NCBI GenBank assembly: GCA_049521735.1 | Contig: JBEKON010000009.1 | Coordinates: 1 to 54,077 of the forward strand | DNA length: 54,077 bases | Direction of reading: 5' to 3' | Source of the DNA: Verrucomicrobiota bacterium | GTDB lineage: Bacteria; Verrucomicrobiota; Verrucomicrobiia; Limisphaerales; UBA11358 | Part shown: piece by piece, positions 974-39,927 of the stretch | How the letters are laid out: the number at the start of each line of letters is the position of its first letter | Position numbering within the stretch: the first letter of the stretch is position 1 | Notes under the pieces: model-generated | Told to the model about the DNA's origin: nothing | Database searches by the model: none | Seen by the model: only the letters and a program-made list of their open reading frames with translations | Position numbers and translations under genes: made by a program

Positions 974-3148
974 TTATGGGGTGGTGCCGGTGGTCGTGGA
1001 GGACGAGCCTTGCTGGAAGGTAAAGCCCGTGATGACCGTGATGACCTGCGTTGCTTTCATTTCGGTCTGCCGCCCGCTGGTGGTGGTGACCTCCGGCGCG
1101 GCCAATTCTTCCGTACCCTGGCGTTGTTCCAAGGCATGGAGCACGACCTGGAAGTTGGGATTGGTCAGGATGCCGGTAATGCTGGCAACGGCCGGAAGAC
1201 CGGAATTGTTGAGACCGCCGGTCAGGCTTTGCACTGTAGCTGGAATGGTCGTGCCGTTGAAAAGATTGCCGGGAAATGTCCCGGAAGGATTCGCAGCAGA
1301 TGTCGGCACATAAAGCGACCCCTGATTGCCGCCACTCGCAACAACAGACTTTCCCATGTTGAATTGCCCCAAATACCAGTCAAAGCCCAATCCTGCTTGG
1401 TCATCTTGATTTACCTGAATGAACCGGGTCTTGATATGAATCTGCGGGGCCACCTGGTTCAAAACCTGAATGGCATTTTCAATGGTGTCCAAGTCCTGCA
1501 GTGTCGCGCGAACAAACAGCAACCCCAATCTGTCATTGAAGAAAATACTCTTGGGATAGGATAAATCCACTCCCAACGTTGTGAAGAAATCCCTGGCGAG
1601 CGTGCTGACACCCGCCATGTTATTCGTGACAGTCACAAAGCTCAATCCACCGTTGCCGGCTCCTTGCCCGCCGCCGCCGCCGCCACCACCGCCGCCGCCG
1701 CCATTTCCACTGGATCGAAGTCCAGCCGAACCCGGCGCCGCATTTACAATTGCAAAAACTCCGCTTGATTGGTTATTATTTCCGCTGCTGCCGCCGCTGC
1801 TTCCGCCGCCACCGCCGCTGCCGCCGTTATTGTTGTTGTTGTAAAAGGCCAACCCACTTACGCTTTCCAAGCCCTGAACGAAAGTATTTGGATCTACTTT
1901 GAACGTCCGCGAATAAAGTTGTGGCGATCGAGGTCCCATGGCTGAAAAAATGACGGCGTAATCTTCAATGGAATATTTGATGGGATGATCGGCGACTTTC
2001 ACGATCGCATCCAACACTTCAGACAAGCGCACATCAGTGAGCGGCGGATTGATTCTGACGCTGACGGAATTGATGTCCACCGATGTTTCCCCGGCCGGTC
2101 CCGTGGAAATTGGCAAGCCGGTCGTGGGATCGATTTGCGTCGCACCGCCGCCACCTCCACGTCCTCCAGAAGCGCCGGTCGTAACAGACGCGGAATTATC
2201 CGCATTGGGATTAATCAGGAAGTTGATGCCTTTTTTTTCCGGGTCACGCAGCTTGGCCTGTTCGCTCAAACTGCGGACAACTTCGTTCAACGGCAAACTG
2301 TCGTACATCACCGAATCAAGCCGGATGCGATCCAGTTTGCTCATGATGGCTTCACGTCCCGGGCCGGTGTGAATGAGAGTGGTGGAAGCATACGGATTGG
2401 GCACAGGCAGGGACAATTGCACGTTCCTTGGCAATTCCCACTCTTTAGCCACCTGCACCACGCGACTTTCGTTGTCAGCCGTTGTAAGATGCTCCTCACG
2501 GGCGTAGGTGCCCTGCTTGACCAGGCTCAAATAATAAAACGCACCCTGATTATTAGGGTCCAATTTCACAGCCTGCTCCAGCTTGGCTTCGGCTTCCTCA
2601 AACTTGCCCATCTCGTAAAGCAGCTTGCCATCGCGCACCAGGGTGTTCGCTTCCATTTTCTCGTCGACTACGATGGGAACTTTTTGCAGAGTCGCTTCAT
2701 CAGGTATTTTGCCGCGCATCGCGGCGATCATCTGGTCGTTTTGTTTTTTGAATGCAAGCACGGTGGGATTAGCCGGGTCCACTCTCAAGGCGCGGTTGAC
2801 CTCCGTGTCGGCTTTTCGCAAATCACCCCGGCGTTGCGCTTCGAGAGCCAATTCGAGCCTCACTGACACGAGTCCGGAAATGGTTTGCGCCGTCTCGGCG
2901 TCAATGCCAGAGCCGATTTGTTGGACGAGCGAATAGGCGTCCTCATACAGTCTGGCGCCGACAACCAAATCTCCGCGAGCGACAGCATCTTTGGCTTGCG
3001 CAAGCTTCTGGCGCAAAACGATGGTGTTGGCCTGCCGCAACACCGCTTCACTGACGGCCATTTCTGCAGGCGTCGTTTGAGCTGGCGACACAAGAGTGGC
3101 CGCCAGCATCAGAATTAAACCGAGAGGAATGGAAACTGCTTTTGTCAT
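974..3148 (-). CDS. Secretin N-terminal protein: signal peptide, TPR-like repeats, Gly/Asn-rich linkers and the first part of a secretin domain
   Basis: 724-aa ORF. It has a signal peptide (MTKAVSIPLGLILMLAATLVSPAQT), TPR-like helices, poly-Gly/Asn tracts and the start of a secretin domain (IKTRFIQVNQDD..GLGFDWYLG..FQVVLHALEQRQGTEELAAPEVTTTSGRQTEMKA). The ORF terminates at 974. Confidence 0.8.
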   Translation of the reverse strand: MTKAVSIPLGLILMLAATLVSPAQTTPAEMAVSEAVLRQANTIVLRQKLAQAKDAVARGDLVVGARLYEDAYSLVQQIGSGIDAETAQTISGLVSVRLELALEAQRRGDLRKADTEVNRALRVDPANPTVLAFKKQNDQMIAAMRGKIPDEATLQKVPIVVDEKMEANTLVRDGKLLYEMGKFEEAEAKLEQAVKLDPNNQGAFYYLSLVKQGTYAREEHLTTADNESRVVQVAKEWELPRNVQLSLPVPNPYASTTLIHTGPGREAIMSKLDRIRLDSVMYDSLPLNEVVRSLSEQAKLRDPEKKGINFLINPNADNSASVTTGASGGRGGGGGATQIDPTTGLPISTGPAGETSVDINSVSVRINPPLTDVRLSEVLDAIVKVADHPIKYSIEDYAVIFSAMGPRSPQLYSRTFKVDPNTFVQGLESVSGLAFYNNNNNGGSGGGGGSSGGSSGNNNQSSGVFAIVNAAPGSAGLRSSGNGGGGGGGGGGGGQGAGNGGLSFVTVTNNMAGVSTLARDFFTTLGVDLSYPKSIFFNDRLGLLFVRATLQDLDTIENAIQVLNQVAPQIHIKTRFIQVNQDDQAGLGFDWYLGQFNMGKSVVASGGNQGSLYVPTSAANPSGTFPGNLFNGTTIPATVQSLTGGLNNSGLPAVASITGILTNPNFQVVLHALEQRQGTEELAAPEVTTTSGRQTEMKATQVITVITGFTFQQGSSSTTTGTTP

Positions 3149-4018: not shown

Positions 4019-4963
4019 TTAAATTCCCGGCAACAGTTCCACGACTTCGATCTTCATGGTGATGCTCAAGATATGTTCATCGAGCACCGTCTGCAATCCG
4101 CCCCGACCGGTGGGCGCGGACGGCGATTGATATGCCGGTTGATTGGGTGGCGCGTAAGGTGGAGGTTGGGTGCCCGTCGTCTCCCCGCCAGGGGGAGAAG
4201 CTGATGACGCAGTAGTTGTCGCCGCCGCCTGCACGCTAATGTCTTTCACGACGAATCCGTGCGGCGACGACGCAAAAATGGACAACGCGTTTGCCAAATC
4301 CTGACTGAAACAGCGGAAAGTCACTTCATATGGCGTAAAAATGGCGAGGTTGTTGGTGACGGTCGGCTCATTAAGATAATCCGATTGCGGGCCACGGGCA
4401 TCGTCATCCGAAACACGCACACGTTGAAGGCCGTCCAAAGAATTGATTTTGGCCGCATAAAGAATTTCTGAAATAGTTTTCACTGCGCCCAGTTGCTCGG
4501 CCAGCGGTCCAAGGCTGCCAGGCGCGAATTTCACCAACGTCCGCTCCGCTTCAAACGAGAAGCCGTATTGAGGCGGCAACGTGACGCTGGCGTTGCCGGC
4601 TTCATGTTGCAACTGGTCAATCGTCCGGCGCAGCGCGGCGGCAAATGCCTCACTGGTCACGACGTTGTTGGTTGGATTCGGAATGGGCGGGATCGGCTTA
4701 AAATATTGCTTCGCCTGCTGAATCCAATCGCGCAGTTGCTGTTCTTGTTCGCGGGCCGTTTGAATGTTATTGACATTATTGTTGCCTGGAGACGGTTTTT
4801 CATTGTTGATCGTTTGTAACGTCTTGTATGTCTTGTTCAATGCGTCCAAGGCCGTTTCATTCCGCTGCCAATTCCTAAATTCATAGACGCCAGCAGCCGC
4901 CAGCAACCCCACAGCCAAAGCGGTGCCGATGAAAAAAAACAAATTTCTCTTAATCCAAGTCAT
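4019..4963 (-). CDS. PilO-position, Amuc_1100-like membrane-anchored pilus-associated protein
   Basis: 314 aa. It has an N-terminal TM anchor (NLFFFIGTALAVGLLAAAGVY), a helical segment, and a Pro/Thr/Ala-rich linker near the C-terminus (TTTASSASPPGGETTGTQPPPYAPPNQPAYQSPSAP). It starts 1 nt after the stop of the PilMN ORF. Confidence 0.6.
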   Translation of the reverse strand: MTWIKRNLFFFIGTALAVGLLAAAGVYEFRNWQRNETALDALNKTYKTLQTINNEKPSPGNNNVNNIQTAREQEQQLRDWIQQAKQYFKPIPPIPNPTNNVVTSEAFAAALRRTIDQLQHEAGNASVTLPPQYGFSFEAERTLVKFAPGSLGPLAEQLGAVKTISEILYAAKINSLDGLQRVRVSDDDARGPQSDYLNEPTVTNNLAIFTPYEVTFRCFSQDLANALSIFASSPHGFVVKDISVQAAATTTASSASPPGGETTGTQPPPYAPPNQPAYQSPSAPTGRGGLQTVLDEHILSITMKIEVVELLPGI

Positions 4964-9936: not shown

Positions 9937-12900
9937 ATGGAAACGAAGAAAATTTGTCCGAACTGCCGGAAGCCGTTGCCGCCGGACGTGCCGTTGGGAC
10001 TGTGTCCGGAGTGCCTCATCAAATCCGGCTTCCCCACCGGGACTGAACCGGGAACGGCGGGCGAGGCTGCCGGCACGCGGTTTGTGCCGCCGCCGGTCGC
10101 GGAAATCGCACAGCTTTTTCCACAACTCGAAATCCTTCGCCTCATTGGCCAGGGCGGCATGGGGGCGGTTTACAAGGCCCGGCAGCCGACGCTGGACCGC
10201 TTTGTCGCGTTGAAGGTATTGCCACCGGTGGTGGCCAGCGACCCAGGTTTCGCCGAACGGTTCAACCGCGAGGCGCGCGCCTTGGCGCGTTTGAATCACC
10301 CAAATATCGTGGCCGTGCATGACTTCGGCAAGGCGGGCGCATTGCCTTATCTGCTGATGGAATTTGTGGATGGAGCTAATCTGCGCGAGGTTGAACAGGC
10401 CGGAGAACTGACGCCGGAAAAAGCACTGGCCATTGTGCCGCAAATCTGCGAGGCGCTCCAGTTCGCCCACAACGAAGGCATCGTCCACCGCGACATCAAG
10501 CCGGAAAATCTGCTGCTGGATAAAAAGGGCCGGGTGAAAATCACGGACTTCGGCATCGCGAAAATTGTTGGGGCGCCTGCCGGCAAGGTTTCGCTGACGG
10601 GCGTCAAGGACGTGGTGGGCACGCCGCATTACATGGCGCCGGAACAGATCGAGAAGCCGCAGACGGTGGATCATCGCGCGGACATTTATTCGCTGGGGGT
10701 TGTGTTCTACGAAATGCTCACCGGCGAACTGCCATTGGGAAAATTTCAGCCGCCGTCGAAGAAGGTCCAGATCGATGTGCGGCTGGACGAAGTTGTTTTG
10801 CACACGCTGGAAAAGGAACCTTCGCGCCGTTACCAGCAGGTGAGCCAGGTGAAGACGGACGTGGAGACAATTGCGGGAACGGCGCCGGTGGATACCGAAA
10901 CATTGACTCGGGAAATTCTGTCTCGGGACTATGTTTTAGACATTGGCAGTTGCCTGAGCCGCGGTTGGGCGTTGCTGCAAAATAATTTTTGGCCGGTCGT
11001 GGGCATCACCGCGCTGATCGTGTTGCTGCGGCACGCAGCTGATTCCTCCTTGATAGGCATTGTGGTCGGTGGTCCGCTCATGGGCGGATTGTGGTTGTAT
11101 TACCTGAAGAAGATCCGCGGAGAGCAGGCAGGCTTGGAGACAGTCTTTTCCAGCTTTAGCATCGCCTTTCTGCATCTCTTCCTCGCCGGCCTGATCACCA
11201 TGGTGTTGACGGTGCTTGGAATTATCTGCCTGATATTGCCCGGCATTTATCTGGCGATTGCCTGGCTGTTCACCCTGCCCCTGGTCATTGACAAACGGCT
11301 CGATTTCTGGCCGGCAATGGGGTTAAGCCGCAAGACAATCTCCAAACATTGGTGGAAATTCCTCGGATTCATAATCATCCTGGGCTTGATTAATCTGGCG
11401 GGGCTCCTGGCCTGTTTTGTGGGGCTTCTCATCACCGTTCCCCTTTCCCTGGCCGCGATGATGTATGCCTACGAAGACATCTTCGGCCCGACCAGCCGTA
11501 CAGCCAGCCTGCTGGCATCTGACACCGTCCAAGCCAAGGCGACTGCGTTGGCGGGAACATCGGCAAAATCACCCCGTTCAAACGACGGAACTTGGAAGGT
11601 TGTCGTAATCGCCGCAGCGGCAGCAATGCTGATTCTGGCCATTTTGTTCGGCGCATTGTTCGTGCCCGCATTGAGCAAGGCCCGGCAGCGCGCTGCCATG
11701 CATCAAGCGACCGCCAACTTCATGGTTCGCGGGGTCGTCAGCGACGCCGCTACCGGCAAACCCATTGCCGGCGCACGGGTGGCGGACAACATCTACGGCG
11801 CGCGCACCAACCGAACCCCGCGGGAAGCTTGGACCGATGCAACCGGCCGCTACGAACTGAAGACGTGGTATGAGGAGCACTCCATTGCCGCTTCTGCGCC
11901 CGGTTACGAAACCAAACTGGCCACGCTCTTCACCAAACCTTTGGGCAAAAAGAAAGAAGCACAGATGGATTTCCAGTTGCAACCGGCCCGGGCGAACGCT
12001 CCGGCCACCAATGGGGATTCCAGCATGGCTTTGAACATTTCATCACCGGAACCAACCGCCATTCCCCCAGCGGCGCCAAGACCACCCACGACGCATCCGG
12101 GAAAAGTCATCGGCAATCTTTCGACATCGGACCCTTACCAGCAGGATTTCAACCAGACTCTGCTGCTTTCCGCCAATGGCCGATTGCGCCTCGATAATGT
12201 CAACGGCCGTATCGAAATCTTCGGCTGGGACCGTAATGAAGTCTCCATCAAAGCCCTCAAGCACGGCAAAACCCAGGAAAGCGTCGAAGACACCAAAATC
12301 GTTGTTGATTCGTCACCGGATGAAATTGCCATCCACACGGAACAGCCGTCCAGCCAGAACGGACCTTTCGGGACTTGGTCATGGCTCATGAACGGCGGTA
12401 TCAAAATGGCGACGGTGGATTACGTCATCCAGGTTCCACGAAGCACGCGCCTCAAGGAAATTACCAGTGTCAATGGGCGCATCGCGATTGAAGACGTCAA
12501 CGGCGATATCGAAGCGTCCACTGTCAATGGTGAAATGCAGGTCGCGGGAACAGCGGGCGATTTGGAACTTTCCACCGTCAACGGCCGGATTGCCGCGGAA
12601 CTGGTTTCCCTCGGACGCGGTCAATCGGTTTCGTTCGACAGCGTCAACGGCAAAATCGAGGTCACCTTGCCTGCCAACGCGAACGCCGAAGTTTCGGCCG
12701 ACGTAGTCAACGGCAGCATCACCAGCGAATTTCCCGCCTTGGCGGTTCAAAAGGAATTTCCGTTAGGTAAAAAACTGAAGGGAACACTCGGCAACGGCGG
12801 CGCCAGTGTCAAAGCCAACGCGGTCAATGGCCGCATCAGCTTCCGGATGGGCCAGGATGCGCAAAAATCCGGTGTTAAACAGTCCGAAACGGAAGACGCG

Positions 12901-13747: not shown

Positions 13748-14416
13748 ATGAAAATCACCTTTGCCCGAATGGTGCTGCTCTGCTTCGCGTTGGGCTCCGC
13801 TAATTCTGCCATCGCGCAGGATTCCAAGCCTGTCATCACGCCGACGAACCACATCGAGCTTTTCAACGGCAAGGATCTTTCGGGCTGGACGTCTTGCATG
13901 AGGACGAACGGCGATTCGTCGCAGACCTGGACCGTCACCAATGGCGTCATTCATTGTACCGGCAAACCCAGCGGCTACCTCCGCACGCTGCAAAATTATC
14001 GCGATTACCAGCTCACCGTCGAATGGCGCTTCGTCAAAATCGCGCCCAAGGCCGACAACACCGGCGTGCTCGTCCATATGCAATTACCCGACAAAGTCTG
14101 GCCGATGTGCATCCAAAACCAGGGAAAATACAACAACCAGGGTGACTTGATATTTATGGCCGGCGCGGAATCCAAGGAGCATCGCGGCATGGACGCCAAT
14201 ACGCCGGTCCCGAAGCAAGGACCCTCGAATGAAAAACCCGTTGGGGAGTGGGACACGATTCTGACGGTTTGCTCCGGCAACGACGTCAAGGCTTACGTCA
14301 ACGGCAAGTTCATGAATGAAGGAACCGAATGCACCCTCTCTTCGGGTTTCATCGGCTTCCAAAGCGAAGGCGGCGAATTCGAAATCCGCAAAGTGTTCTT
14401 GGACCCGCTGAAATAA
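13748..14416 (+). CDS. DUF1080 (3-keto-disaccharide hydrolase-like) secreted protein
   Basis: ORF 13739..14416. It has a signal peptide, then ELFNGKDLSGW..W.V.NGVI.C.GKPSGYL.T...Y.DYQL.VEWRF...GFIGFQSEGGEFEIRKV, the typical DUF1080 pattern. Confidence 0.85.
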   Translation: MKITFARMVLLCFALGSANSAIAQDSKPVITPTNHIELFNGKDLSGWTSCMRTNGDSSQTWTVTNGVIHCTGKPSGYLRTLQNYRDYQLTVEWRFVKIAPKADNTGVLVHMQLPDKVWPMCIQNQGKYNNQGDLIFMAGAESKEHRGMDANTPVPKQGPSNEKPVGEWDTILTVCSGNDVKAYVNGKFMNEGTECTLSSGFIGFQSEGGEFEIRKVFLDPLK

Positions 14417-14912: not shown

Positions 14913-16259
14913 TTATTCTTTTGGTGTTTGCAGCCGTTTCTTCACCCACGCCCTGGCCTGGCGCGGTGTTAATAGTTCATCCTGCAACTGTTTTTCGCGG
15001 ATTTCCGCGAGCAATGCACCCATCGCCGGACCCGGTTTCACGCCCAGTGCAATCAAATCGTTGCCGGTGAGCAACGGCGGTCGAATCGCCGGTTGCTTCT
15101 CCAATTCCGCCGCCTGCGCCATCAGAAATTCGTAATGATCCAGATTGCCGTGCGAGCCGAGGCAATCGAGCCGGTGCAATTCGAGTTCCAGTGGAAATGT
15201 GTCTCGCATCAACAACCGCCGCAGCGTTGCCTTGCGCATCTGTTTCACGTCCTTGAATTGCATGTGCTGCCGCACGCACGCGACAATTTCCTCGATTTGT
15301 TTTTTTGGGAAACGCAGCCGAAGCAAAATTTTTTCCGCCAGCGCCGCGCCGATCTTTTCGTGTTCGCAAAAATGAATTGCAGCGGTTTGCAGATCACGCT
15401 CCGCCGTCACGGGCTTGCCGATGTCATGCAAAATCACCGCCCACGGCAGTGATTCGTGCGCATCCGGCGGCAGTTTCTCCAGCATCAGCCGGATGTGCCC
15501 GAACACGGTGCCTTCGGGATGATAATCCGGCGATTGTTCGCACGAAATCGTTGCCGCGAGTTCGGGCGAAATCAGCTCCAGCAACCCGCTGTCGCGCAAC
15601 AAGACCAAACCGCGCGCGGCATGCGACGGTGAAAATAATTTGATGAGTTCGTCGCGAACACGCTCGGCGCTGATCAGTTGGATTTTCGGCGCAAGCCCTT
15701 TGATGGCGGCAAATGTTTGCGGCTCGATTTCAAAACCCAGTTGCGCGGCAAATCGCACCGCGCGCAACAGGCGCAAATGGTCCTCGGCAAAGCGTTCTTC
15801 CGGCGAACCGATGGTACGGATGATTTTAGCGCGCAAATCCTTTTCGCCGCCGACCCAGTCGTGAAGTTTTTCGGCGATCGGATCGTAAAAAAGCCCGTTG
15901 ACGGTGAAATCGCGTCGCTGCGCGTCGGCTTGCGCGTCGCCGAACGTGACCTGTTCCGGATGCCGTCCATCCCGGTAATCCGCCTCGGCGCGAAAGGTGG
16001 CGACTTGAAATTGATGTTTGTCTTCGACGACAACCATCACGCCGAATTTGCGTCCGACGGCGATGGTGCGTTTGAACAACTTCTCGATTTGTTCCGGGCG
16101 CGCGTCCGTGGCGATGTCGTAATCCTGCGGTTCGCGTCCGAGCAAAAAATCGCGCACACAACCGCCAACCCAAAACGCGGCAAAGCCGGCGGTTTGCAAG
16201 CGGCGGACAATTTCAGCAGCGGTCTCGCGCAGAGAAAAACTCACGGAATTCATTCTCAC
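14913..16259 (-). CDS. cca: tRNA nucleotidyltransferase (CCA-adding)/poly(A) polymerase family enzyme with HD domain
   Basis: GGCVRDFLLGREPQDYDIAT is the nucleotidyltransferase head. VILHDIGKP.. and the later His/Asp residues indicate an HD domain. 448 aa. Confidence 0.8.
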   Translation of the reverse strand: MRMNSVSFSLRETAAEIVRRLQTAGFAAFWVGGCVRDFLLGREPQDYDIATDARPEQIEKLFKRTIAVGRKFGVMVVVEDKHQFQVATFRAEADYRDGRHPEQVTFGDAQADAQRRDFTVNGLFYDPIAEKLHDWVGGEKDLRAKIIRTIGSPEERFAEDHLRLLRAVRFAAQLGFEIEPQTFAAIKGLAPKIQLISAERVRDELIKLFSPSHAARGLVLLRDSGLLELISPELAATISCEQSPDYHPEGTVFGHIRLMLEKLPPDAHESLPWAVILHDIGKPVTAERDLQTAAIHFCEHEKIGAALAEKILLRLRFPKKQIEEIVACVRQHMQFKDVKQMRKATLRRLLMRDTFPLELELHRLDCLGSHGNLDHYEFLMAQAAELEKQPAIRPPLLTGNDLIALGVKPGPAMGALLAEIREKQLQDELLTPRQARAWVKKRLQTPKE

Positions 16260-17356: not shown

Positions 17357-17390
17357 AGACGCAGCGTAGATGATAATTTTTTATAGGCAA

Positions 17391-17440
17391 CCCCTCTCCC
17401 TGGCCCTCTTCCCCGCGCTGCGCTGCGAGGAGAGGGAATG
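17391..17440. repeat. REP-like element family A (forward orientation, diverged loop)
   Basis: cccctctccctggccctcttccccgcgctgcgctgcgaggagagggaatg. Confidence 0.75.
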
Positions 17441-19362: not shown

Positions 19363-21684
<2,322 letters not shown>

Positions 21685-21752
21685 CCACAAAGACACAAAG
21701 GCACGAAGATAATTTTCACCGCAGAGACGCAGAGATGTGGAGCATTTTAAAA

Positions 21753-21850
21753 GGTAGGGCTCGCTGTCCCCAGCGAGCCGTGTAATTTGGGAGGGTCGCC
21801 ATGTTGGCGACCCCAATATCAGGGACGGCAACATGCCGTCCTTCCCAATC
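21753..21850. repeat. Family B hairpin cluster downstream of ligA
   Basis: ggtagggctcgctgtccccagcgagcc, gggtcgccatgttggcgaccc and ggacggcaacatgccgtcc are three GC hairpins. The last two recur at 23744-23810 and the first at 31554. Confidence 0.85.
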
Positions 21851-21853
21851 GTT

Positions 21854-22093
21854 TCAGCGCGGGTTAAGGATATCTTCCTTCTGCACACCTTTGACCTCGG
21901 CTACGGAGCGCAAGATGGCATTGAGCGTGCCGATGCGCAACGGGTCGTGAGCGGGAACTGCCAATCGGTGGTGGCGTGGTAAATCTGTTTCCAGAATGAC
22001 ATGACTCCCCTCCTGATTAACCCGGCGGTAACCGTGACGTTTGCAGAGCAGCTTGATTAACTCCGTGCCGCTCAAATCGCGCGGCAGTTTCAT
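21854..22093 (-). CDS. hicA: HicA-family toxin (YcfA-like mRNA interferase)
   Basis: 79 aa. LSGTELIKLLCKRHGYRRVNQEGSHVIL...AVPAHDPLRIGTLNAILRSV is the typical HicA/YcfA pattern. It overlaps hicB by 4 nt. Confidence 0.8.
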   Translation of the reverse strand: MKLPRDLSGTELIKLLCKRHGYRRVNQEGSHVILETDLPRHHRLAVPAHDPLRIGTLNAILRSVAEVKGVQKEDILNPR

Positions 22094-22296
22094 GCGCTGG
22101 CCAGAAGTTCGTCCCGCACCAGATGCAGCCGCACGGTGGTGGGTTTGGGCTGGTCAAAGAAATAGGCCGACACGGCCTCACGCACATTGGAGCGTAATTC
22201 CTCCCACGTGTTGCCTTGCGTAAAAATGTCGTGCGAAAGACATTCGGCAACATAGCCGCCGTCGCTTTCCTGCATCACGCTAAAGACAATTTCCAT
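22090..22296 (-). CDS. hicB: HicB-family antitoxin (UPF0150-type)
   Basis: Internal Met of ORF 22090..22464 gives MEIVFSVMQESDGGYVAECLSHDIFTQGNTWEELRSNVREAVSAYFFD..VRLHLVRDE. The longer ORF N-terminus is antisense to a ligA-tail repeat. Confidence 0.75.
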   Translation of the reverse strand: MEIVFSVMQESDGGYVAECLSHDIFTQGNTWEELRSNVREAVSAYFFDQPKPTTVRLHLVRDELLASA

Positions 22297-22419
22297 GGCA
22301 CAACTATCACCCGGAATCCGGTGAAAAACAAGCCTTTCCTTGCTGGCTCCAGCCGGCTTTTTATCCACAGATTTCACAGATTCACACTGATTTTTCTCTG
22401 CGCCTTTGCGTAAATCTTT

Positions 22420-22497
22420 GCCGCCAAAACTCGACAAGGCCAACAAGCTCGGCGTAAAAATCATCAGCGAAGCGGAGTTTTTGAATATGATTTAACC
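22420..22497 (+). repeat. Diverged extra copy of the ligA 3' end (copy 2)
   Basis: gccgccaaaactcgacaaggccaacaagctcggcgtaaaaatcatcagcgaagcggagtttttgaatatgatttaa would encode ..[22 protein letters not shown]. The ligA end is ..[22 protein letters not shown]. Confidence 0.85.
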
Positions 22498-22584
22498 CGC
22501 AAAGGCGCAATGGTTTGTTTCACGTATTCTTGTGCATCGGTTTTAATACTTGAGCTTTCCGTAAATTTCAGAAATACTCATATC

Positions 22585-23634
22585 ATGGTTAAAAAATCGT
22601 GGCTGCAGGCGCTGTTGCTCTGGGCTTTGCTCTACCCCATCCCAGCAACAGTCAATGCCACGACTTTTTTGCGTTTGCAAAGCACTTATCTTGGTGATGG
22701 CTGGTTTCAATACGAGATGGATGTTTTAAATGACCCGTTCTTTTCAGAAGCGGATATCACTGATTTACGAATTACTTCTTCGAACGAGATCGACCACAGC
22801 ACGGATTCAACGAATTGGGTCAATTATAATTGGGACAATTCCTCTTCGTACTGGCATTTCAATTCCAGCTACCCAACGCGTCCTTATGAGGAGACTTTCC
22901 TGGTTCGAAGTTCCGAAACCTCCTACAAACTGGGCGTTTTTACCAATCTCCAAGGAGCAATTTTCTTTCTGTCATTGTATGGTAGCGACTTTGCCCCGAC
23001 CAACTTCAGCAAAAACATAGTTGGATACGCGTGGGTCCCGTGCCTTATCCCATGCAGTCCTGAAGAGGCGGACAATTCCCCGACCAATTTTGTTTATGAT
23101 TTGAAGCTGCTGCCGGATATTGAAATCAATCAGTTGATTCAAACCAACGGCGAATTCCATGGAGTGGATTTTACATGGGATGATGAATCTACATTTGTGC
23201 TGCAAGGTACTGCCGATTTTCTAAATTGGACAAACATCGCCTACATCTGGAGCTACCCACCCGAAACGGTTTGGACGACTAACATATCTCTGGGTGATTA
23301 TGGCCAATTCTTCCGGATCGCTCTCGTTGCAGGCGGGCACAGTTCATCCCTGCCACCATTGAGTTCGAGCTTGGTACTTGCGCCAAAAACACTGGCAAAA
23401 GCCAACGTCGCTTCAACAACGCCTCGTGTGACAAGTTGCAAGCCAGCCGATAGCAATGTGGTTGTCAGCCTTGCCACGAAACCCAATCAGCCTGTTCAAG
23501 TACAGGCCATAGATGCTCACGGTACAGTCTATCAAACACAATTGATTACACCACAAGGCACTTCAGCAACCGTAAACTTTACCACTGTCGGTCTGCCCAA
23601 TCCTGTCTTCTTTCAAGTCGTTCCCGTCCAGTAA
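22585..23634 (+). CDS. Hypothetical secreted protein (AT-richer cargo gene)
   Basis: The Met at 22585 gives signal peptide MVKKSWLQALLLWALLYPIPATVNA. The protein is Asn/Ser/Thr/Trp-rich with no recognised domain. It is bracketed by copies 2 and 3 of the ligA 3' end. Confidence 0.55.
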   Translation: MVKKSWLQALLLWALLYPIPATVNATTFLRLQSTYLGDGWFQYEMDVLNDPFFSEADITDLRITSSNEIDHSTDSTNWVNYNWDNSSSYWHFNSSYPTRPYEETFLVRSSETSYKLGVFTNLQGAIFFLSLYGSDFAPTNFSKNIVGYAWVPCLIPCSPEEADNSPTNFVYDLKLLPDIEINQLIQTNGEFHGVDFTWDDESTFVLQGTADFLNWTNIAYIWSYPPETVWTTNISLGDYGQFFRIALVAGGHSSSLPPLSSSLVLAPKTLAKANVASTTPRVTSCKPADSNVVVSLATKPNQPVQVQAIDAHGTVYQTQLITPQGTSATVNFTTVGLPNPVFFQVVPVQ

Positions 23635-23637
23635 CAA

Positions 23638-23718
23638 GAAGCCGGCTCAAAACTCGACAAGGCACAAAAGCTCGGCGTAAAAATCATCAGCGAGAAGGAA
23701 TTCCGGGCGATGATTTAA
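23638..23718 (+). repeat. Near-identical extra copy of the ligA 3' end (copy 3)
   Basis: gaagccggctcaaaactcgacaaggcacaaaagctcggcgtaaaaatcatcagcgagaaggaattccgggcgatgatttaa differs from ligA 21601-21684 at only a few positions. Confidence 0.9.
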
Positions 23719-23743
23719 TCACCAAGACGCGAAGGCACGAAGT

Positions 23744-23810
23744 AATTTGGGAGGGTCGCCATGTTGGCGACCCAAATATCAGGGACGGCAACATGCCGTC
23801 CTTCCCAATC
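23744..23810. repeat. Family B hairpin pair (duplicate of 21783-21850)
   Basis: taatttgggagggtcgccatgttggcgacccaaatatcagggacggcaacatgccgtccttcccaatc is nearly identical to 21783-21850. Confidence 0.9.
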
Positions 23811-31411: not shown

Positions 31412-31553
31412 ATTTGGGACGGGCAACTTATAAATTTCGGACTGAAGATGCAACCCCCGGACACGTGGGCCGCCAAAACATCACGTCAACCGGTGTCTGA
31501 ATTCCGCACAGGAATAGCCGCAAAAGGGCGCAAAAGACACAGAGATTTTTTTA

Positions 31554-31626
31554 GGTAGGGCTCGCTGTCCCTAGCGAGCCGATTTTAGACCGGATAAACG
31601 GCGCGATGCGGAGATCGCGCCCTACC
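31554..31626. repeat. Family B element bounded by GGTAGGG...CCCTACC
   Basis: ggtagggctcgctgtccctagcgagcc...ggcgcgatgcggagatcgcgccctacc. Confidence 0.85.
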
Positions 31627-33926: not shown

Positions 33927-33950
33927 ATAAAAGAACGGCTTTAAACGAAC

Positions 33951-33999
33951 CACCTCACCCCGGCCCTCTCCCCCAACTTCGTTGGCGGAGAGGGAGAAT
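33951..33999. repeat. REP-like element family A
   Basis: cacctcaccccggccctctcccccaacttcgttggcggagagggagaat, essentially identical to 19447-19495. Confidence 0.9.
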
Positions 34000-34701: not shown

Positions 34702-36567
34702 ATGTGCGGCATCATCGGATACGTCGGCAAAAAAGCGGCCTCGCCCATCCTGCTTGAAGGATTGCGGCGGCTGGAATATCGCGGCTACGACAGCGCGGGC
34801 ATCGCTGTGTTGCACGACGGCGAACTGCTCGTCCGCAAGAAAAAGGGGAAAATCAGCGAAGGCCTCGCGCGCCTTTTGAAAGCCGAACTGGTCGCTGGAA
34901 ACCTCGGCATAGGCCACACACGCTGGGCCACGCATGGCCCGCCGTCCGACCAGAATTCCCATCCGCATCTCGATCAATCCGGCAAAATCGCCGTCGTTCA
35001 CAACGGCGTCATCGAAAATTACGACGCACTCAAACAAAAACTGCTCAAGGCCGGGCACACATTCCGTTCCGACACCGACACCGAAGTGCTGGCGCATTTG
35101 ATTGGCGATTATTATTACGGGAAACGACGCGGGCGGAATGGTAAAGGCAACTCGAATCCGCTGACACTGGCCGTTTGCGATGCGCTGCGTGAAGTCATCG
35201 GCGCTTACGGCATTGCAGTCGTTTGTGCCGACCAGCCCGACACCATCGTCGGCGCACGGCGCGGTTCGCCGCTCATCATCGGCATCGGCAAAGGCGAAAA
35301 TTTTCTCGCCAGCGACGCCAATGCCATCGTCGCCCACACGAAAAAGGTCGTTTACCTGAATGATTACGACGTGGCAACCGTTACGAGCAAGCGGTTTGAC
35401 GTTTTGAATTTGGGCGCCGACACCGCCAACGTGCAGATCAGCAAGCTCGCATTCAGCCAGGAAGACGCCGTGCGCGGCAAGTTTGCACACTTCATGCTCA
35501 AGGAAATTTTCGAACAGCCACGCACCGTGGAAAACGCCCTGCGCGGTCGCGTGGACATCAAAGGTGCGACCGCCAAGTTCGGCGGTTTGAATCTGACGCC
35601 CGCGCAATTGCGCTCAATCAAACGCATCGTTATCGCCGCCAGCGGCACGAGCTGGCACGCGGCGCTGGTGGGCGAGTATTTGATTGAAGAACTCGCGCAG
35701 ATTCCGGTCGAAGTCGAGTTCGCCCATGAATTCTGTTACCGCAACGCGCCGCTCGAACACGACACGGTGCTGCTGGTCATTTCGCAATCCGGCGAGACTG
35801 CCGACACGCTCGCCGCGTTGCGCAAAGCCAGGCATTGCGGCCATCGCGCGCTCGCCATCGTCAATGTTGTCGGCAGCACCATCGCGCGCGAATCCGACGG
35901 CGGCATTTACATGCACGCCGGACCGGAAATCGGCGTCGCCTCGACGAAAGCCTTTGTTTCGACGCTGACCATTTTAGCGCTGCTGGCCGTCCACTTGGGC
36001 CGGATGCGGCAGCTTTCGGCCCATCGCGCATTGGAAATTCTGCGCGCGCTCGAAGCCGCGCCCAAGCAGCTTGAATCCATCCTCGCGCAGAGCGACGCGT
36101 TCAAAAAACTCGCGCTTAAATACGCGAAGGCCGACGATTTCTTTTTCCTCGGACGCGGTTACACATTCCCGATTGCGCTGGAAGGCGCGCTCAAGCTGAA
36201 GGAAATTTCCTACATCCACGCCGAGGGTTATTCAGCGGCGGAAATGAAGCACGGCCCGATTGCGTTGATTGACCCGCAGACGCCGACGGTTTTTGTGGTG
36301 CCGCAGGATTCAATGTATGACAAGACGATGGCGAATCTGGCGATGATTCGTGCGCGCAAAGGTCCCATCATCGCGCTGGCCACCGAAGGCGACAAACAAA
36401 TCGGGAAGGTGGCCGACGACGTGATTTACCTGCCGAAGACACTGGAACCGATTTACCCGATTCTGGCGACTGTGCCGCTGCAACTGTTCGCGTATCACAT
36501 CGCCGTCGCGCGCGGCTGCGACGTGGACAAGCCGAGAAATCTGGCCAAGAGCGTGACGGTGGAGTGA
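34702..36567 (+). CDS. glmS: Glutamine--fructose-6-phosphate aminotransferase
   Basis: MCGIIGYVG at the N-terminus (the nucleophile Cys), two SIS domains, and the C-terminal ..DVDKPRNLAKSVTVE typical of GlmS. Confidence 0.95.
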   Translation: MCGIIGYVGKKAASPILLEGLRRLEYRGYDSAGIAVLHDGELLVRKKKGKISEGLARLLKAELVAGNLGIGHTRWATHGPPSDQNSHPHLDQSGKIAVVHNGVIENYDALKQKLLKAGHTFRSDTDTEVLAHLIGDYYYGKRRGRNGKGNSNPLTLAVCDALREVIGAYGIAVVCADQPDTIVGARRGSPLIIGIGKGENFLASDANAIVAHTKKVVYLNDYDVATVTSKRFDVLNLGADTANVQISKLAFSQEDAVRGKFAHFMLKEIFEQPRTVENALRGRVDIKGATAKFGGLNLTPAQLRSIKRIVIAASGTSWHAALVGEYLIEELAQIPVEVEFAHEFCYRNAPLEHDTVLLVISQSGETADTLAALRKARHCGHRALAIVNVVGSTIARESDGGIYMHAGPEIGVASTKAFVSTLTILALLAVHLGRMRQLSAHRALEILRALEAAPKQLESILAQSDAFKKLALKYAKADDFFFLGRGYTFPIALEGALKLKEISYIHAEGYSAAEMKHGPIALIDPQTPTVFVVPQDSMYDKTMANLAMIRARKGPIIALATEGDKQIGKVADDVIYLPKTLEPIYPILATVPLQLFAYHIAVARGCDVDKPRNLAKSVTVE

Positions 36568-36640
36568 TTGTAGAAGACGCAGGCGGATTACAGTATGAAG
36601 ACGATTGCTTTCCTTGCTGACAGTCTGCTAAAGGAATTTC

Positions 36641-38299
36641 ATGAGATTCGTCATGGAAATTGCGAAGTCCAGCGATTCACTTGAAGCACTCCGGCTCGAA
36701 GCCGAGCAAGGAGATTCCAAGGCGCAAAGTGATTTGGGATTACGCTATTACATGGGCGAGGGCGTAACTAAAGATTTCACGGAAGCTCTAAAATGGTATC
36801 GCAAGGCGGCTGAACAGAACGAAGCGTCAGCACAAAACAGCATAGGTCTCTGTTACGCCAGCGGCCAAGGTGTCAAACAAGACCTGACCCAAGCTGTTCA
36901 ATGGTATCGCTTGTCCGCAGAAAAAGGTAACCGCTGTGGCCAAAACAACCTTGGAACGTGCTATGACGAAGGGCAGGGTATTGCCCAAGATTCGGCTCAA
37001 GCAGTCGAATGGTATCGTCGCGCTGCCGAACAAGGGAACAGCGAAGCCCAAAACAATCTCGCAATTTGTTACGAACAGGGGCGTGGTGTGCAAAAAGATT
37101 TGTCCGAAGCAGCCAGGTATTACCGGCTTGCTGCGGAACAAGGCCACGAATACGCCCAGAGGAATCTCGGCTTGTGCTATCGGGACGGATTGGGTGTTTC
37201 TCGGGATGCAGTCGAGGCCATCAAATGGCTTCGGAAGGCAGCCGATAAAGAATTTGTTCCTGCACAGTTGTCGCTTGTCTTGACTTATAGAAATGGCCGC
37301 GGTGTTCCCAAAGACCAACAAGAAGCACTCAAATGGCTGCGTAAAGCAGCCGAAAATGGAGATGCAAACGCCCAGACTTGGCTGGGGCTCGTGCACTACT
37401 TAGGCCGCGACCTGCCACGCGACTTGGCAGAATCAGCCAAATGGTTTCGGCGGGCGGCTGAAGCCGGAGAGGCTGCTGGCCAATCGAGCTATGGTCGTCT
37501 TTTGTTGACTGGTCAGGGTATCGGCAAAAATCCGATCGAAGCCGTTCAGTGGTTTCGGAAAGCGGCGACTCAAGGAGATGCACACGGAGAATACTGTCTC
37601 GGTGTATGCTACGCTAGCGGACTCGGAACGGACAAAGACTTTGACGAGGCTCGTAGGTGGTTTCAGTTGGCTGCCCGGAAGAATTATTTAGATGCCAAAT
37701 ATCGTCTTCGACTGCTTTTTTTCCAAAAGCATTCGATTTTGAAATGGCGTAACATCGTCATTTCAACTCTTGGTTGCGCACTGCTGATTTTGCATGGAGT
37801 CCGTTTTCCCATTTCAGTCAATGGTTTTGCCATAGCAGCTTTCCTCGGAATTCTTGCCACCAGTGGCGTGGTCTTCATTGCAGCCATGGCATTGATGGAA
37901 AAGTTAGGTGTGAAAGTATTGGATGAAAAGGAGGCAGACGCGATCAATGAGCGGCTTTTTTCTATGTTGAGAAAAGAACCTTGGAGACTTCTGCTCATTC
38001 CAGCAGAGGATGGCGTCTTTCTTTTGCCTCTGCTCTATGTTGGAATTAGCCCCGTCTCGGCTGCCGTGGCAGCTTTCCTTTTTGCGGTGGCTCACTACCC
38101 CGGCTTTCCATGGCGATATTGCATACCCAAGGGCATAGCCTATTTCTTCGTGGCGCTGTTTATTCTTCCCTATGGCATCTGGTCTGTCGTCGTAGCTCAC
38201 CTGATTGTTGATGTCGGCCTATGGGTGGTCATGTTGGTGGTGAAGGTGGAAGGGAAACCGACTTGGCGCCGGCTTCTCCGAGTATTACGAACTGAATGA
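36641..38299 (+). CDS. Sel1-repeat protein fused to a polytopic CPBP-like (CAAX-protease-like) membrane domain
   Basis: About 9 Sel1/SLR repeats (A..WYRKAAEQG...AQ..LG.CY..G.GV..D). These are followed by 5-6 TM helices containing FAVAHY and VVAHLIVD, which resemble CPBP motifs 2 and 3. Confidence 0.75.
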   Translation: MRFVMEIAKSSDSLEALRLEAEQGDSKAQSDLGLRYYMGEGVTKDFTEALKWYRKAAEQNEASAQNSIGLCYASGQGVKQDLTQAVQWYRLSAEKGNRCGQNNLGTCYDEGQGIAQDSAQAVEWYRRAAEQGNSEAQNNLAICYEQGRGVQKDLSEAARYYRLAAEQGHEYAQRNLGLCYRDGLGVSRDAVEAIKWLRKAADKEFVPAQLSLVLTYRNGRGVPKDQQEALKWLRKAAENGDANAQTWLGLVHYLGRDLPRDLAESAKWFRRAAEAGEAAGQSSYGRLLLTGQGIGKNPIEAVQWFRKAATQGDAHGEYCLGVCYASGLGTDKDFDEARRWFQLAARKNYLDAKYRLRLLFFQKHSILKWRNIVISTLGCALLILHGVRFPISVNGFAIAAFLGILATSGVVFIAAMALMEKLGVKVLDEKEADAINERLFSMLRKEPWRLLLIPAEDGVFLLPLLYVGISPVSAAVAAFLFAVAHYPGFPWRYCIPKGIAYFFVALFILPYGIWSVVVAHLIVDVGLWVVMLVVKVEGKPTWRRLLRVLRTE

Positions 38300-38328
38300 A
38301 AAAAGTTCTCCTGAATGTTATCATTCCT

Positions 38329-38386
38329 GCGCGGCTGCGACGTGGACAAGCCGAGAAATCTGGCCAAGAGCGTGACGGTGGAGTAA
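38329..38386 (+). repeat. Extra copy of the glmS 3' end
   Basis: gcgcggctgcgacgtggacaagccgagaaatctggccaagagcgtgacggtggagtaa equals 36510-36567 except for the stop codon (TGA versus TAA). Confidence 0.95.
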
Positions 38387-38420
38387 AAATAGTCCATTCA
38401 TTCGGTTAAACAAAAAGCTT

Positions 38421-39821
38421 ATGAAAACATTTCATGTCCCCGGTAAATTTATGGTTCTGTCTTTCCTGCTGCTTTCAGCCTTCGCCATCGAAGCGGCCAC
38501 CTCCACCGCGTTGTTCAACGTGCGCAACTACGGGGCCTTCGGTGACGGCAAGCATCTGGAAAACTTCGCCATCAACAGGGCCATCGCGGCCTGCGCCAAT
38601 GCCGGGGGCGGCACGGTCTATCTGCCGCCGGGGAAATATCTGTCCGGCACCATCGTGCTGAAGAGCCATGTCACTCTGGATTTGGACGCGGGCGCGACGA
38701 TTCTCGGCAGCGAGAACCCGGAAGATTACCCGACGCTCAAGGATCCCTGGGGCGGCGACCGGGCGGAAATATCCCCGTTGATTTACGCGGAAGATGCAGA
38801 AAACATCACTATTACTGGCCGTGGCACCATCAACGGCCAGGGACAGATTTGGTGGAAACGGCAATGGCTGGCGTTTCCCAAAAAAGGAATGCCCGAGGCG
38901 AAAACTCCCGAGGATTTTGACGAGGTGAAAAAGATTTCCCGCGGCCGGCCCCAGTTGATCCGGCTGGTGCGCTGCAACGACGTGGTGATCGAGCATTTGA
39001 ATTTGACGAATTCGCCGAGCTGGAACGTGCATCCGCTCTTTTGCGAATTCGTGCGCGTGGATGGCCTGACCATTTCCACGCCGGTGCCGTCGCCGAACAC
39101 GGACGGCATCAACCCGGAGAGCTGCCGGAACGTGCAAATCATCAACTGCCGCATTGATACCGGCGACGATTGCGTGACCTTGAAATCGGGCATCAATGAA
39201 ACGGGCCGACGCATGGGCCGGCCGGACGAGAACATCACAATCGCCAACTGCGTGATGAAGAAAGGCCACGGCGGCGTGACCATCGGCAGCGAGATGTCCG
39301 GCGGGGTGCACAATGTCACGGTGGCGAACTGCGTGTTTCAGGGCACGGACATCGGGATTCGCGTCAAGGCGCAGCGCGGTCGCGGCAACGTGGTGGAAGG
39401 CCTGACGGTGGCCAATGTCGTGATGCAGGACGTGCCGCATCCGTTCACCATCACGACGTTTTACCATGGCAGCGACCAGCCGGGTGATGTTTATCCCGTG
39501 GACGAGGGGACGCCGCGTTTCCGCGATTTTCTTTTCAGCAACATCACGGCCCGGGGCGCCAAGGACGCCGGCAGCATCACCGGCCTGCGCGAATTGCCCA
39601 TCGAGAACATCTCGTTCAGCAACGTTCACATCCAGGCCGCCAAAGGGTTCACCTGCACCAATGCCCGGGAAATCTCCTTCCTGGATGTGGTCATCAACAC
39701 CGACGAAGGCCCGGCCCTGATTCTGCGCAATGCCACGGGCATAGATTCCTCGCGCTTGCGGACCCAGACCCCGCACCAGGACGTTCCCTTGGTGGATTCC
39801 GACGCGTCGGCGAGCCAGTAG
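38421..39821 (+). CDS. Glycoside hydrolase family 28 (polygalacturonase-like)
   Basis: Signal peptide, FNVRNYGAFGDGK, then the GH28 catalytic motifs SPNTDGINP, TGDDCVTLKSG, KGHGGVTIGSE and GIRVKA. Confidence 0.85.
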   Translation: MKTFHVPGKFMVLSFLLLSAFAIEAATSTALFNVRNYGAFGDGKHLENFAINRAIAACANAGGGTVYLPPGKYLSGTIVLKSHVTLDLDAGATILGSENPEDYPTLKDPWGGDRAEISPLIYAEDAENITITGRGTINGQGQIWWKRQWLAFPKKGMPEAKTPEDFDEVKKISRGRPQLIRLVRCNDVVIEHLNLTNSPSWNVHPLFCEFVRVDGLTISTPVPSPNTDGINPESCRNVQIINCRIDTGDDCVTLKSGINETGRRMGRPDENITIANCVMKKGHGGVTIGSEMSGGVHNVTVANCVFQGTDIGIRVKAQRGRGNVVEGLTVANVVMQDVPHPFTITTFYHGSDQPGDVYPVDEGTPRFRDFLFSNITARGAKDAGSITGLRELPIENISFSNVHIQAAKGFTCTNAREISFLDVVINTDEGPALILRNATGIDSSRLRTQTPHQDVPLVDSDASASQ

Positions 39822-39927
39822 TTGTCCACGCCGCTTTGTCCGGGTGGAATCCCGCCTTCGCGGCTTGCTTCCGCCTTCATTGCATTTCGGCGTGACGAGT
39901 CGGCGTGGGCTGTGGCTAACTACCCGT

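Follow-up and report, generated by a model that had tools for sequence, protein, structure and literature searches.

A recombinase-less Sel1 cassette between two copies of the glmS end in a Verrucomicrobiota genome: possible site-directed insertion at conserved gene ends

The 3' end of glmS, the gene for glutamine-fructose-6-phosphate aminotransferase, is present twice in a 54,077-nt contig from a Verrucomicrobiota bacterium, and a single long open reading frame (ORF) encoding Sel1 repeats lies between the two copies. The study genome, called G000 here (assembly GCA_049521735.1), is a 92%-complete metagenome bin of 2.08 Mb in 79 contigs, and the window analyzed is its entire contig C9 (JBEKON010000009.1). 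Our preferred explanation, to which we give about an even chance, is a site-directed, Campbell-type insertion of a cassette without a recombinase of its own, catalyzed by a recombinase acting in trans and resembling in its logic the behavior of integrons and of cis-mobilizable elements (CIMEs). The nearest relative in our collection, G165 (20 contigs, ~95% identical at the glmS locus), retains the empty site. The features of the locus are listed below, with minus positions counted back from the final base of the stop codon.

34702..36567, + strand: glmS, intact (Pfam SIS twice, GATase_6/7); its terminal 58 nt form the proximal repeat
36501..36526, + strand: imperfect dyad CGCCGTCGC-GCGCGGCT-GCGACGTGG within glmS, positions -67 to -42, read from the sequence
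36510..36567, + strand: proximal glmS-end copy with stop TGA, which now completes glmS (the G165 empty site has TAA)
36568..36640, + strand: 73-nt cassette leader; the 46 nt before the start codon recur ahead of a domain-only homologue in G119
36641..38299, + strand: cargo gene, 552 aa, nine Sel1 repeats (Pfam) and a C-terminal multi-pass membrane domain with a weak likeness to CPBP/Rce1
38300..38328, + strand: 29-nt cassette trailer, ending in the sharp junction ...TCATTCCT/GCGCGG
38329..38386, + strand: distal glmS-end copy (relic) with stop TAA, attR-like, the displaced resident end (colinear with G165)
38421..39821, + strand: GH28 polygalacturonase-like gene (Pfam Glyco_hydro_28), the original 3' neighbor of glmS, ~95% identical to the gene directly after glmS in G165

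The two glmS ends are identical over 56 nt (36510-36565 and 38329-38384) and then run into different stop codons, TGA at 36565-36567 and TAA at 38384-38386. This agreement at 57 of 58 positions is far above chance, and the duplication of the glmS end around an insert, as described in an earlier sequence-only reading of this DNA, is borne out. The same reading had named the insert as a single Sel1-CPBP gene. One part of that description stands, in that 36641-38299 is the only long ORF between the copies and it has nine Sel1 repeats (Pfam E 4e-90). The other part does not reach significance: the match of the membrane portion to the Rce1-like/CPBP family (E 0.0017, 19 bits) is below the 22.4 cut-off, and the CPBP-like label is plausible but not established. 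The insert has a G+C content of ~0.45-0.55, compared to ~0.57-0.62 in the flanks, and no terminal inverted repeats were found at its ends. Since neither a terminator-like site after glmS nor a promoter-like site before the cargo gene was found, the cargo is likely transcribed by read-through from glmS.

The direction of the change is given by the empty site in G165, which reads glmS-TAA-atagtccattcattcgg-GH28 and is colinear with 36302-36565 plus 38329-39871 of the window. G000 has therefore gained 1819 bp, and an exact empty site of the kind to be expected in relatives of a true insertion does exist. The TAA copy and its flank are the original end of glmS; the cargo brought with it the proximal TGA, if not more of that copy, and all of the inserted sequence after it. 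Throughout its length, the G000 glmS is 93-98% identical to that of G165, and no divergent imported tract was seen in its 3' part in this comparison. In another genome (G001, C131, ~4865-4900), the GH28 homologue is preceded not by glmS but by a decayed ~35-nt relic of the glmS end; the relic-plus-GH28 unit predates the insertion in G000.

The positions of the junctions are the most telling about the nature of the event. We queried 163 genomes of the genus with the terminal 141 nt of glmS, and all glmS ends and relics were aligned to place the junctions, although the boundary positions of old relics are blurred through decay. The relics start at the following positions.

-58: G000 and G015
-55: G046, G115 and G008, with three different upstream sequences
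-54/-55: an old relic with the same downstream gene in G056, G150, G155, G160, G113 and G114
-66: G085, G089, G105 and G091 as one group, with G074 as a separate case
-44: one cargo group
-37/-40: two cases

Most of these starts fall within a 5-nt stretch that is the spacer of the glmS dyad, and across the genus the boundaries are mostly located in this spacer or in the left arm; the dyad is a candidate for the core of an attachment site. The end of mnmE is used more heavily still: seven different junctions between cargo and relic are found in or beside the dyad CGTCGGC-AAAAC-GGCGACG, with four or five of them at -64 and two at -58/-59. Both of the tRNA relics in G000 begin in the anticodon loop, the standard position at which tyrosine integrases that target tRNA genes cross over. 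The glmS boundary has a stem score of 6 (p ~0.03 against random genome positions), and a formal test for boundary stems yields p = 0.001 over all 12 loci of G000 at which a 3' end is duplicated and p = 0.057 for the protein genes alone. The left flanks of the junctions (8-16 nt) are no more alike than shuffled pairs (p ~0.4), and so the junctions are sharp. The words ATCGYCGG.. and CAARAC were seen by eye at the glmS, mnmE, leuS and ligA boundaries and are not used as evidence here.

The paired copies are different alleles of functional gene ends. Across nine genomes, the relic and the working glmS end differ by 35 synonymous and 7 nonsynonymous codon changes, and the stop is nearly always kept, which means that each incoming unit carried a functional end in place of the resident one. 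Together with a middle copy of the ligA end in G000 that resembles the ligA of another genome (see below), this synonymous bias rules out local duplication followed by decay, and a long target-site duplication is excluded by the same codon changes and foreign alleles. A diversity-generating retroelement was rejected as well: the only G/A change is that in the stop codon, and no reverse transcriptase is present in the insert or in the neighboring ORFs inspected. Any model has to yield a duplication whose proximal copy is external, and such a duplication is the mark of either a single reciprocal exchange with a circle or copying from a donor and a join upstream of the break.

In the series of events that we propose, the cassette would consist of the 73-nt leader, one gene and the 29-nt trailer, with no recombinase. 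A functional copy of the final ~58 nt of glmS would have come with the incoming DNA, and one reciprocal Campbell-type exchange would have occurred at a preferred site ~54-66 nt before the end of the gene. The incoming copy (TGA) would then complete glmS, and the resident end (TAA) would be left as a silent relic 1.8 kb downstream. The catalyst would most likely be a conservative tyrosine-type site-specific recombinase encoded elsewhere and acting in trans. The substrate would be a circular intermediate, with a circle junction made up of the trailer (...GTTATCATTCCT), one copy of the repeat and TGATTGTAGAAG. We infer the circle, the class of the enzyme and its action in trans; a site-directed enzyme is favored because the junctions cluster, the tRNA boundaries lie in the anticodon loop, 3' ends are used so much more often than 5' ends, and the units are compact. 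The same process may also have filled the ends of at least 10 other conserved genes and tRNAs in G000 and built the arrays at glmS and mnmE in the genus. With no enzyme of their own, the units act as cis-mobilizable elements or, in their logic, as integron cassettes; the insert would then formally be a cis-mobilizable, integron-like cassette, neither a transposon nor the eroded stump of a large island.

The sequence-only reading had further supposed a mechanism common to glmS and ligA, to be looked for as duplicated 3' ends elsewhere in the genome. Such a search supports the supposition, with at least 12 loci in G000 and with relics of the glmS and mnmE ends recurring across the genus. Comparison of G000 with itself uncovers many direct-repeat pairs of 38-250 nt that are 0.6-5 kb apart and 81-100% identical. 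In 12 cases, an intact conserved 3' end is followed by a second fragment beyond a block of cargo: glmS, ligA (twice), a kdsD-like gene with SIS and CBS domains, radC, an aminotransferase gene, ahcY, leuS, mnmE, an unnamed ORF on C66, tRNA-Arg(TCG) and tRNA-Ala(GGC). The ratio of 3'-end to 5'-end cases is 12:1. The cargo encodes Sel1, ankyrin plus thioredoxin, BspA-LRR, ABC1 kinase, PD40, DUF1559, PEP-CTERM, subtilase, CHAD and histidine-phosphatase proteins as well as HicAB. Most cargo genes are co-oriented with the target gene, and the distance from cargo to relic is 1-100 nt, with a median of ~29 nt. In the 5'-end case, a second copy of the initial 66 nt of a hisA-like gene, start codon included, is present 3 kb upstream (C15, 26620-26685 and 29658-29723), with three cargo ORFs between the copies.

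The second case within the window is that of ligA.

21602-21850, 22413-22519 and 23636-23810 (span 21602..23810), + strand: three copies of the ligA 3' end

These copies bracket a hicAB pair on the minus strand and a 374-aa ORF. The middle copy encodes a different but plausible C-terminus that resembles the ligA end of G106. Moreover, ligA is patchily 75-93% identical between G000, G165 and G106 (window 19558-21684), which suggests a mosaic gene, perhaps formed via repeated recombination tied to its cassette site. Given this mosaic structure among all three genomes compared, a search for an imported tract in ligA was uninformative.

Several small structured elements are found in the same region. 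A 74-nt segment with the hairpin ATTTTAAAAGGTAGGGCTCGCTGTCCCCAGCGAGCCG (21709-21781) breaks up the first ligA copy and is missing from the third, and its hairpin recurs at 31545-31581 with 89% identity over 37 nt; this looks like a small element of the repetitive extragenic palindrome (REP) or miniature inverted-repeat transposable element type, apparently inserted after the ligA duplication. The ligA repeat itself (21782-21850 and 23742-23810) includes two GC-rich hairpins within an outer stem, TTGGGAGG...CCTTCCCAA, and a related hairpin cluster occurs on C12 of G000 (12237-12369 and 14077-14240). The two-hairpin cluster possibly represents a structured terminator or a family akin to REPINs. 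Finally, a 57-nt element with an CCCTCTCC...GGAGAGGG hairpin is present at 19439-19495 and 33943-33999 (96% identical), just upstream of the ligA and HAD-glmS transcription units, with a weaker copy at 17383-17439.

Within a stricter set of 55 genomes (completeness >=93%), 12 have a real second copy of the glmS end. The relics are 0.8-10 kb downstream of glmS, with one possible relic at 53 kb, and they are also present in assemblies of only 7-10 contigs (G139, G155, G158 and G160). Three glmS relics stand in tandem in G114, and up to five copies of the mnmE end are found per genome; the maxima per genome are thus three relics for glmS and four for mnmE (the mnmE tally over the 163 genomes counts one unpublished genome, G117). 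The glmS cargo is diverse: an MFS transporter, a creatininase, an enolase-like enzyme and an SDR protein in G008; MerR and a VIT-VWA protein in G015; an aldehyde dehydrogenase in G158; PspC in G160; a protein with a carboxypeptidase regulatory domain in G074; an aldo-keto reductase in G091; and ~207-aa ORFs in G085, G089 and G105. The same ~207-aa cassette is present in G085 and G089 with different downstream DNA, and the alleles are swapped between the two copies; therefore, recombination between the repeats continues.

Some of the mnmE relics have a more complicated arrangement. In G146 (C3, 331500-336500) and G011 (C6, 41000-45500), arrays of mnmE-end relics surround pairs of ~100-aa ORFs at a distance of 170-290 kb from mnmE, beside lpxB in G146 and between a sigma-54 activator gene and dus in G011. 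An AbiGi gene abuts the G146 array. ORFs of ~400 aa beside the two arrays were considered as integrases and turned out to be LpxB, the sigma-54 activator and Dus. Either these arrays consist of cassettes at secondary sites, or they were relocated by rearrangement. On C8 of G153, a unit of two mnmE relics ~450 nt apart occurs twice (2602-3106 and 15254-15761) in inverted orientation, with ~12 kb between, pointing either to an inverted segmental duplication or to the end-point of an inversion within the array. In G160 (C4, 91500-103800), a tRNA-Lys gene lies between mnmE and a decayed mnmE relic, and it carries an integrase-bearing island along with a 176-nt remnant of an integrase 3' end and a partial tRNA. 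This last arrangement is a classical tandem accretion nested in an mnmE array.

Relatives of the Sel1 cargo are few. The closest database proteins are fragments, 80% and 78% identical to the cargo, and the 163 genomes of the genus contain one relative of 72% identity (G022) and a partial one of 90% (G119), neither of which adjoins glmS. The G022 homologue sits in a 6.4-kb segment bounded by its own 89-nt repeat. The G119 gene (C97, 1435-2025) encodes a 196-aa protein that is the CPBP-like membrane domain alone; it is preceded by the same 46-nt leader and is 90% identical in nucleotides to the 3' third of the cargo. It follows that the Sel1 block entered or left the gene as one module.

Which enzyme might act on these units? 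The insert was said in the sequence-only reading to lack a recombinase, and it does; a search for candidates elsewhere in G000 yielded only enzymes of the XerC/XerD type. G000 has no resolvase-domain match and no match to TniQ or rve, but the TniQ control was silent in every control genome, making this a weak genome-wide negative; for the insert itself, with its one Sel1 ORF, the absence of tns genes is clear. The absence of an integrase from G000 is itself weak evidence, since the genome is incomplete and metagenome bins can shed mobile DNA. G165 has eight tyrosine recombinases as opposed to the two in G000, and four of the six inspected adjoin tRNA genes beside G165-specific DNA; integrase-bearing elements specific for tRNA genes are indeed present in both G165 and G160. 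We found no comparable element specific for glmS or mnmE in the inspected contexts (~13 genomes for glmS and 6 for mnmE) or in the listed matches from the 163 genomes. The insert retains the defining trait of a CIME, namely that attL and attR are kept while integration and transfer genes are absent, and the attL/attR-like repeats rebuild the 3' end of the target glmS. The attC sites of integrons are imperfect palindromes with RYYYAAC...GTTRRRY; nothing like them was found at the cassette ends, and what is repeated is the coding end of glmS. Elements that use the XerCD of the host (IMEX or dif modules) are flanked by dif-like XerC/XerD sites of 28 bp, and the GC-rich dyads at the boundaries do not resemble the AT-rich dif consensus.

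Several results weigh against site-directed insertion by an enzyme acting in trans. No recombinase is tied to any glmS or mnmE site. None is encoded in ~15 glmS inserts of 13 genomes, none was found among the Pfam-scanned cargo ORFs at the other G000 loci or among the ORFs scanned in the G146 and G011 arrays, and neither a tyrosine recombinase nor a large serine recombinase (PF07508) was found within ~90 kb of glmS in five well-assembled relatives, which hold 8-31 tyrosine recombinases each. The only two tyrosine recombinases of G000 score best as XerC/XerD, far below the cut-offs for integron integrases, and neither is on C9. One candidate for the missing enzyme, an integrase lying 8 kb downstream of mnmE in G160, belongs to the tRNA-Lys island. 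The ~100 nt of non-coding DNA in a unit are too few to accommodate a lambda-type attP and its arm sites. The glmS starts are clustered rather than identical, with a spread of 4-5 nt and outliers at -44 and -37/-40, and the dyad test is marginal for protein genes (p = 0.057). There is the single 5'-end case, and several of the repeat pairs in G000 are intergenic. Some of the glmS cargo looks like housekeeping genes (recN, aat and a Bat/MoxR operon in G139 and G155). Finally, neither a donor of the Sel1 cassette nor a circular form of it was found in the 163 genomes of the genus or in two exact-pattern scans of metagenome contigs.

Many of these results would be expected if host RecA inserted the DNA by homology alone, with DNA from a related cell that carried a glmS end and the Sel1 gene. 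In one version, a circularized fragment would enter by a single crossover within the ~58-nt homology; in another, one homologous end would be combined with one illegitimate join, by homology-facilitated illegitimate recombination or by break-induced copying and end joining. Conserved genes would simply be the best anchors. We consider such an origin less likely than site-directed insertion, but it is a serious rival with much in its favor. The inspected inserts contain no recombinase; the repeat extends to variable distances past the stop (by 0 nt in G000, by 29 nt in G008 and by 92 nt at ligA), as the reach of homology between donor and recipient would dictate; the 5'-end case, the intergenic repeat pairs and the capture of neighboring housekeeping genes in relatives are readily accommodated; the duplicated ends are alleles of real genes, as judged from the G106-like ligA copy and the synonymous differences; and the allele swap between G085 and G089 implies that RecA acts on the repeats. 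G000 has both ComEC and DprA, and the mechanism is a known one, proposed for arrays of displaced 3' ends in type VI secretion system (T6SS), Rhs and contact-dependent inhibition (CDI) loci (PMC5361080, PMC2884548). On the other hand, illegitimate joins should scatter, while independent junctions pile up at mnmE, at glmS and in anticodon loops. G000 has no Ku for end joining, its glmS has no divergent imported tract, and homology does not predict the 3' bias, the compact co-oriented cassettes or the cassette-plus-relic units far from the cognate gene. In published transformation experiments, homology-facilitated illegitimate recombination is reported to yield insertions with deletions, not duplications. 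The traces that it would leave are one homologous junction and one illegitimate junction at a variable position, usually at a microhomology. The left junction here is invisible, as expected, and right junctions are at few positions across independent events, which speaks against such an origin.

The remaining explanations fare less well. The insert could be what is left of an island, integrative and mobilizable element (IME) or prophage that had its own integrase and decayed to one cargo gene and both att sites. Formation of CIMEs by decay is documented (PMC5704250), and Prochlorococcus islands are reported to contain degenerate remnants that carry additional partial tRNAs (bioRxiv 10.1101/2020.12.28.424599). 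The attL/attR-like repeats, the empty site, the anticodon-loop boundaries of the tRNA cases and the many integrases in sister genomes all fit, and the small genome of G000 (2.08 Mb) may face deletion pressure. We nonetheless think decay unlikely: no inspected insert contains an integrase fragment or pseudogene, the G000 insert has only 73 + 29 nt of non-coding DNA, and no intact integrase-bearing element at glmS or mnmE was found in the inspected genomes or among the matches listed. Moreover, independent internal deletions would not yield equally tight packing at ~10 loci and in many genomes. Assembly error is far less probable still. The 56-nt exact repeat is near a common maximum k-mer (55), and a circular or strain-variant sequence sharing a 56-mer could have been threaded into a contig of this 79-contig metagenome bin. 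However, the sharp junction at the end of the trailer must exist in real molecules for any path through the graph, other loci have imperfect repeats of 38-250 nt, the same architecture is found in the 7-10-contig assemblies of relatives, the sister species has the exact empty site, and the artefact would itself need a real circle with a copy of the glmS end, that is, the same biology. Least credible of all, to the point of being negligible, is that a transposon, Tn7-like or of another kind, inserted at the glmS attachment site, or that staggered cuts made a long target-site duplication. Only the location speaks for it, glmS being the classical Tn7 target. The join falls within the gene at -58 rather than ~25 bp downstream, the repeat measures 58 nt instead of 5 bp, terminal inverted repeats are lacking, one gene is carried, and the assembly has no TniQ or rve match; a target-site duplication should hold the same allele twice, subject to later decay, while the copies in relatives differ (35 synonymous versus 7 nonsynonymous changes) and the middle ligA copy is foreign. 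The conclusion of the sequence-only reading that the insert is not Tn7-like is thus upheld by its 58-nt intragenic repeat, its lack of terminal inverted repeats and the absence of any tns gene.

Comparison with known systems helps to place the cassettes. CIMEs keep attL and attR and lack an integrase, and their tandem accretion is established for integrative and conjugative elements (ICEs) as well as IMEs of streptococci (PMC5704250). The units described here are similar in that cargo lies between repeats of the end of a conserved gene or tRNA, integration and transfer genes are absent, units are stacked in tandem, and the target remains intact. However, CIMEs are described as decay products found beside related ICEs or IMEs, with one site per family (PMC5704250), while the G000 units consist of an ORF plus ~100 nt, are found at 10 or more target genes in one 2-Mb genome, and have no integrase-bearing parent at glmS or mnmE among the inspected contexts and the matches listed. 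The tycheposons of Prochlorococcus also form stacked arrays of partial tRNAs (bioRxiv 10.1101/2020.12.28.424599). The likeness lies in small genomes, delivery of cargo to a small number of conserved sites, older material displaced outward by later integrations, scattered partial copies of the target and island material that mostly lacks hallmark genes. Tycheposons carry their own tyrosine or serine recombinase, often with replication genes, and the seven sites described for them are beside tRNA genes; the G000 targets, in contrast, are mostly protein-gene ends, and no inspected unit has a recombinase.

Integron cassettes lack a recombinase, mostly consist of one gene with a short site by the ORF, and form co-oriented arrays in which the newest cassette is nearest to the fixed site. 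The cassettes described here are likewise recombinase-less, mostly single-gene, arrayed and mostly co-oriented, have a short recombination site by the ORF with the newest unit nearest to the fixed site, and are probably expressed from a resident promoter. Unlike integrons, they have no adjacent IntI, their site mimics the coding end of the target rather than attC, many genes serve as docking points, and insertion places the site that the cassette brings upstream of the ORF. Staphylococcal cassette chromosome (SCC) and pseudo-SCC elements at the 3' end of rlmH (orfX) offer a further parallel: Ccr is a large serine recombinase, the repeats are ~15-18 bp, and the recombinase-less variants rely on Ccr in trans and form arrays separated by direct repeats. 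Docking in a conserved gene end, recombinase-less units and arrays with direct repeats are all shared; the repeats here are instead 40-170 nt, and no serine recombinase was found in G000 or near glmS in the five relatives. In Rhs, CDI and T6SS effector arrays, C-terminal displacement has been attributed to homology-facilitated illegitimate recombination (PMC5361080). There, too, a new 3' end enters and the old one is pushed downstream, leaving arrays of orphan 3' ends, and no recombinase takes part. The displaced pieces in those systems are variable toxin domains with immunity genes, however, while G000 duplicates a conserved housekeeping end with a boundary fixed to within a few nt. Tn7 inserts downstream of the glmS stop with a 5-bp duplication, terminal TnsB-binding repeats and tnsABC(D/E), and its only likeness to the present case is the choice of glmS as a safe site.

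Taking these comparisons together with our preferred site-directed insertion, we tentatively propose, as possible rather than probable, that the genus harbors an undescribed integron-like system of gene capture. Its cassettes would carry working mimics of the last ~55-65 nt of a gene or of the 3' half of a tRNA, dock at fixed points in 10 or more housekeeping genes, build arrays and be exchanged between species, served by one or more recombinases in trans or by the XerC/XerD of the host.

The loci in G000 bear on how small-genome bacteria poor in mobile elements gain their strain-specific genes. At these loci, accessory genes have been added cassette by cassette at the ends of conserved genes, with the target undamaged, and the types of cargo seen include repeat proteins (Sel1, ankyrin and LRR), toxin-antitoxin pairs, an Abi gene and secreted enzymes. 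Should a recombinase acting in trans be responsible, the cassettes would form a new system whose many natural safe-harbor sites would also be of interest to genome engineers. If host recombination is responsible, the fixed boundaries would imply that gene ends contain unrecognized hot spots of breakage. In both cases, duplicated gene ends provide a simple, searchable marker of recent gene gain in metagenome-assembled genomes.

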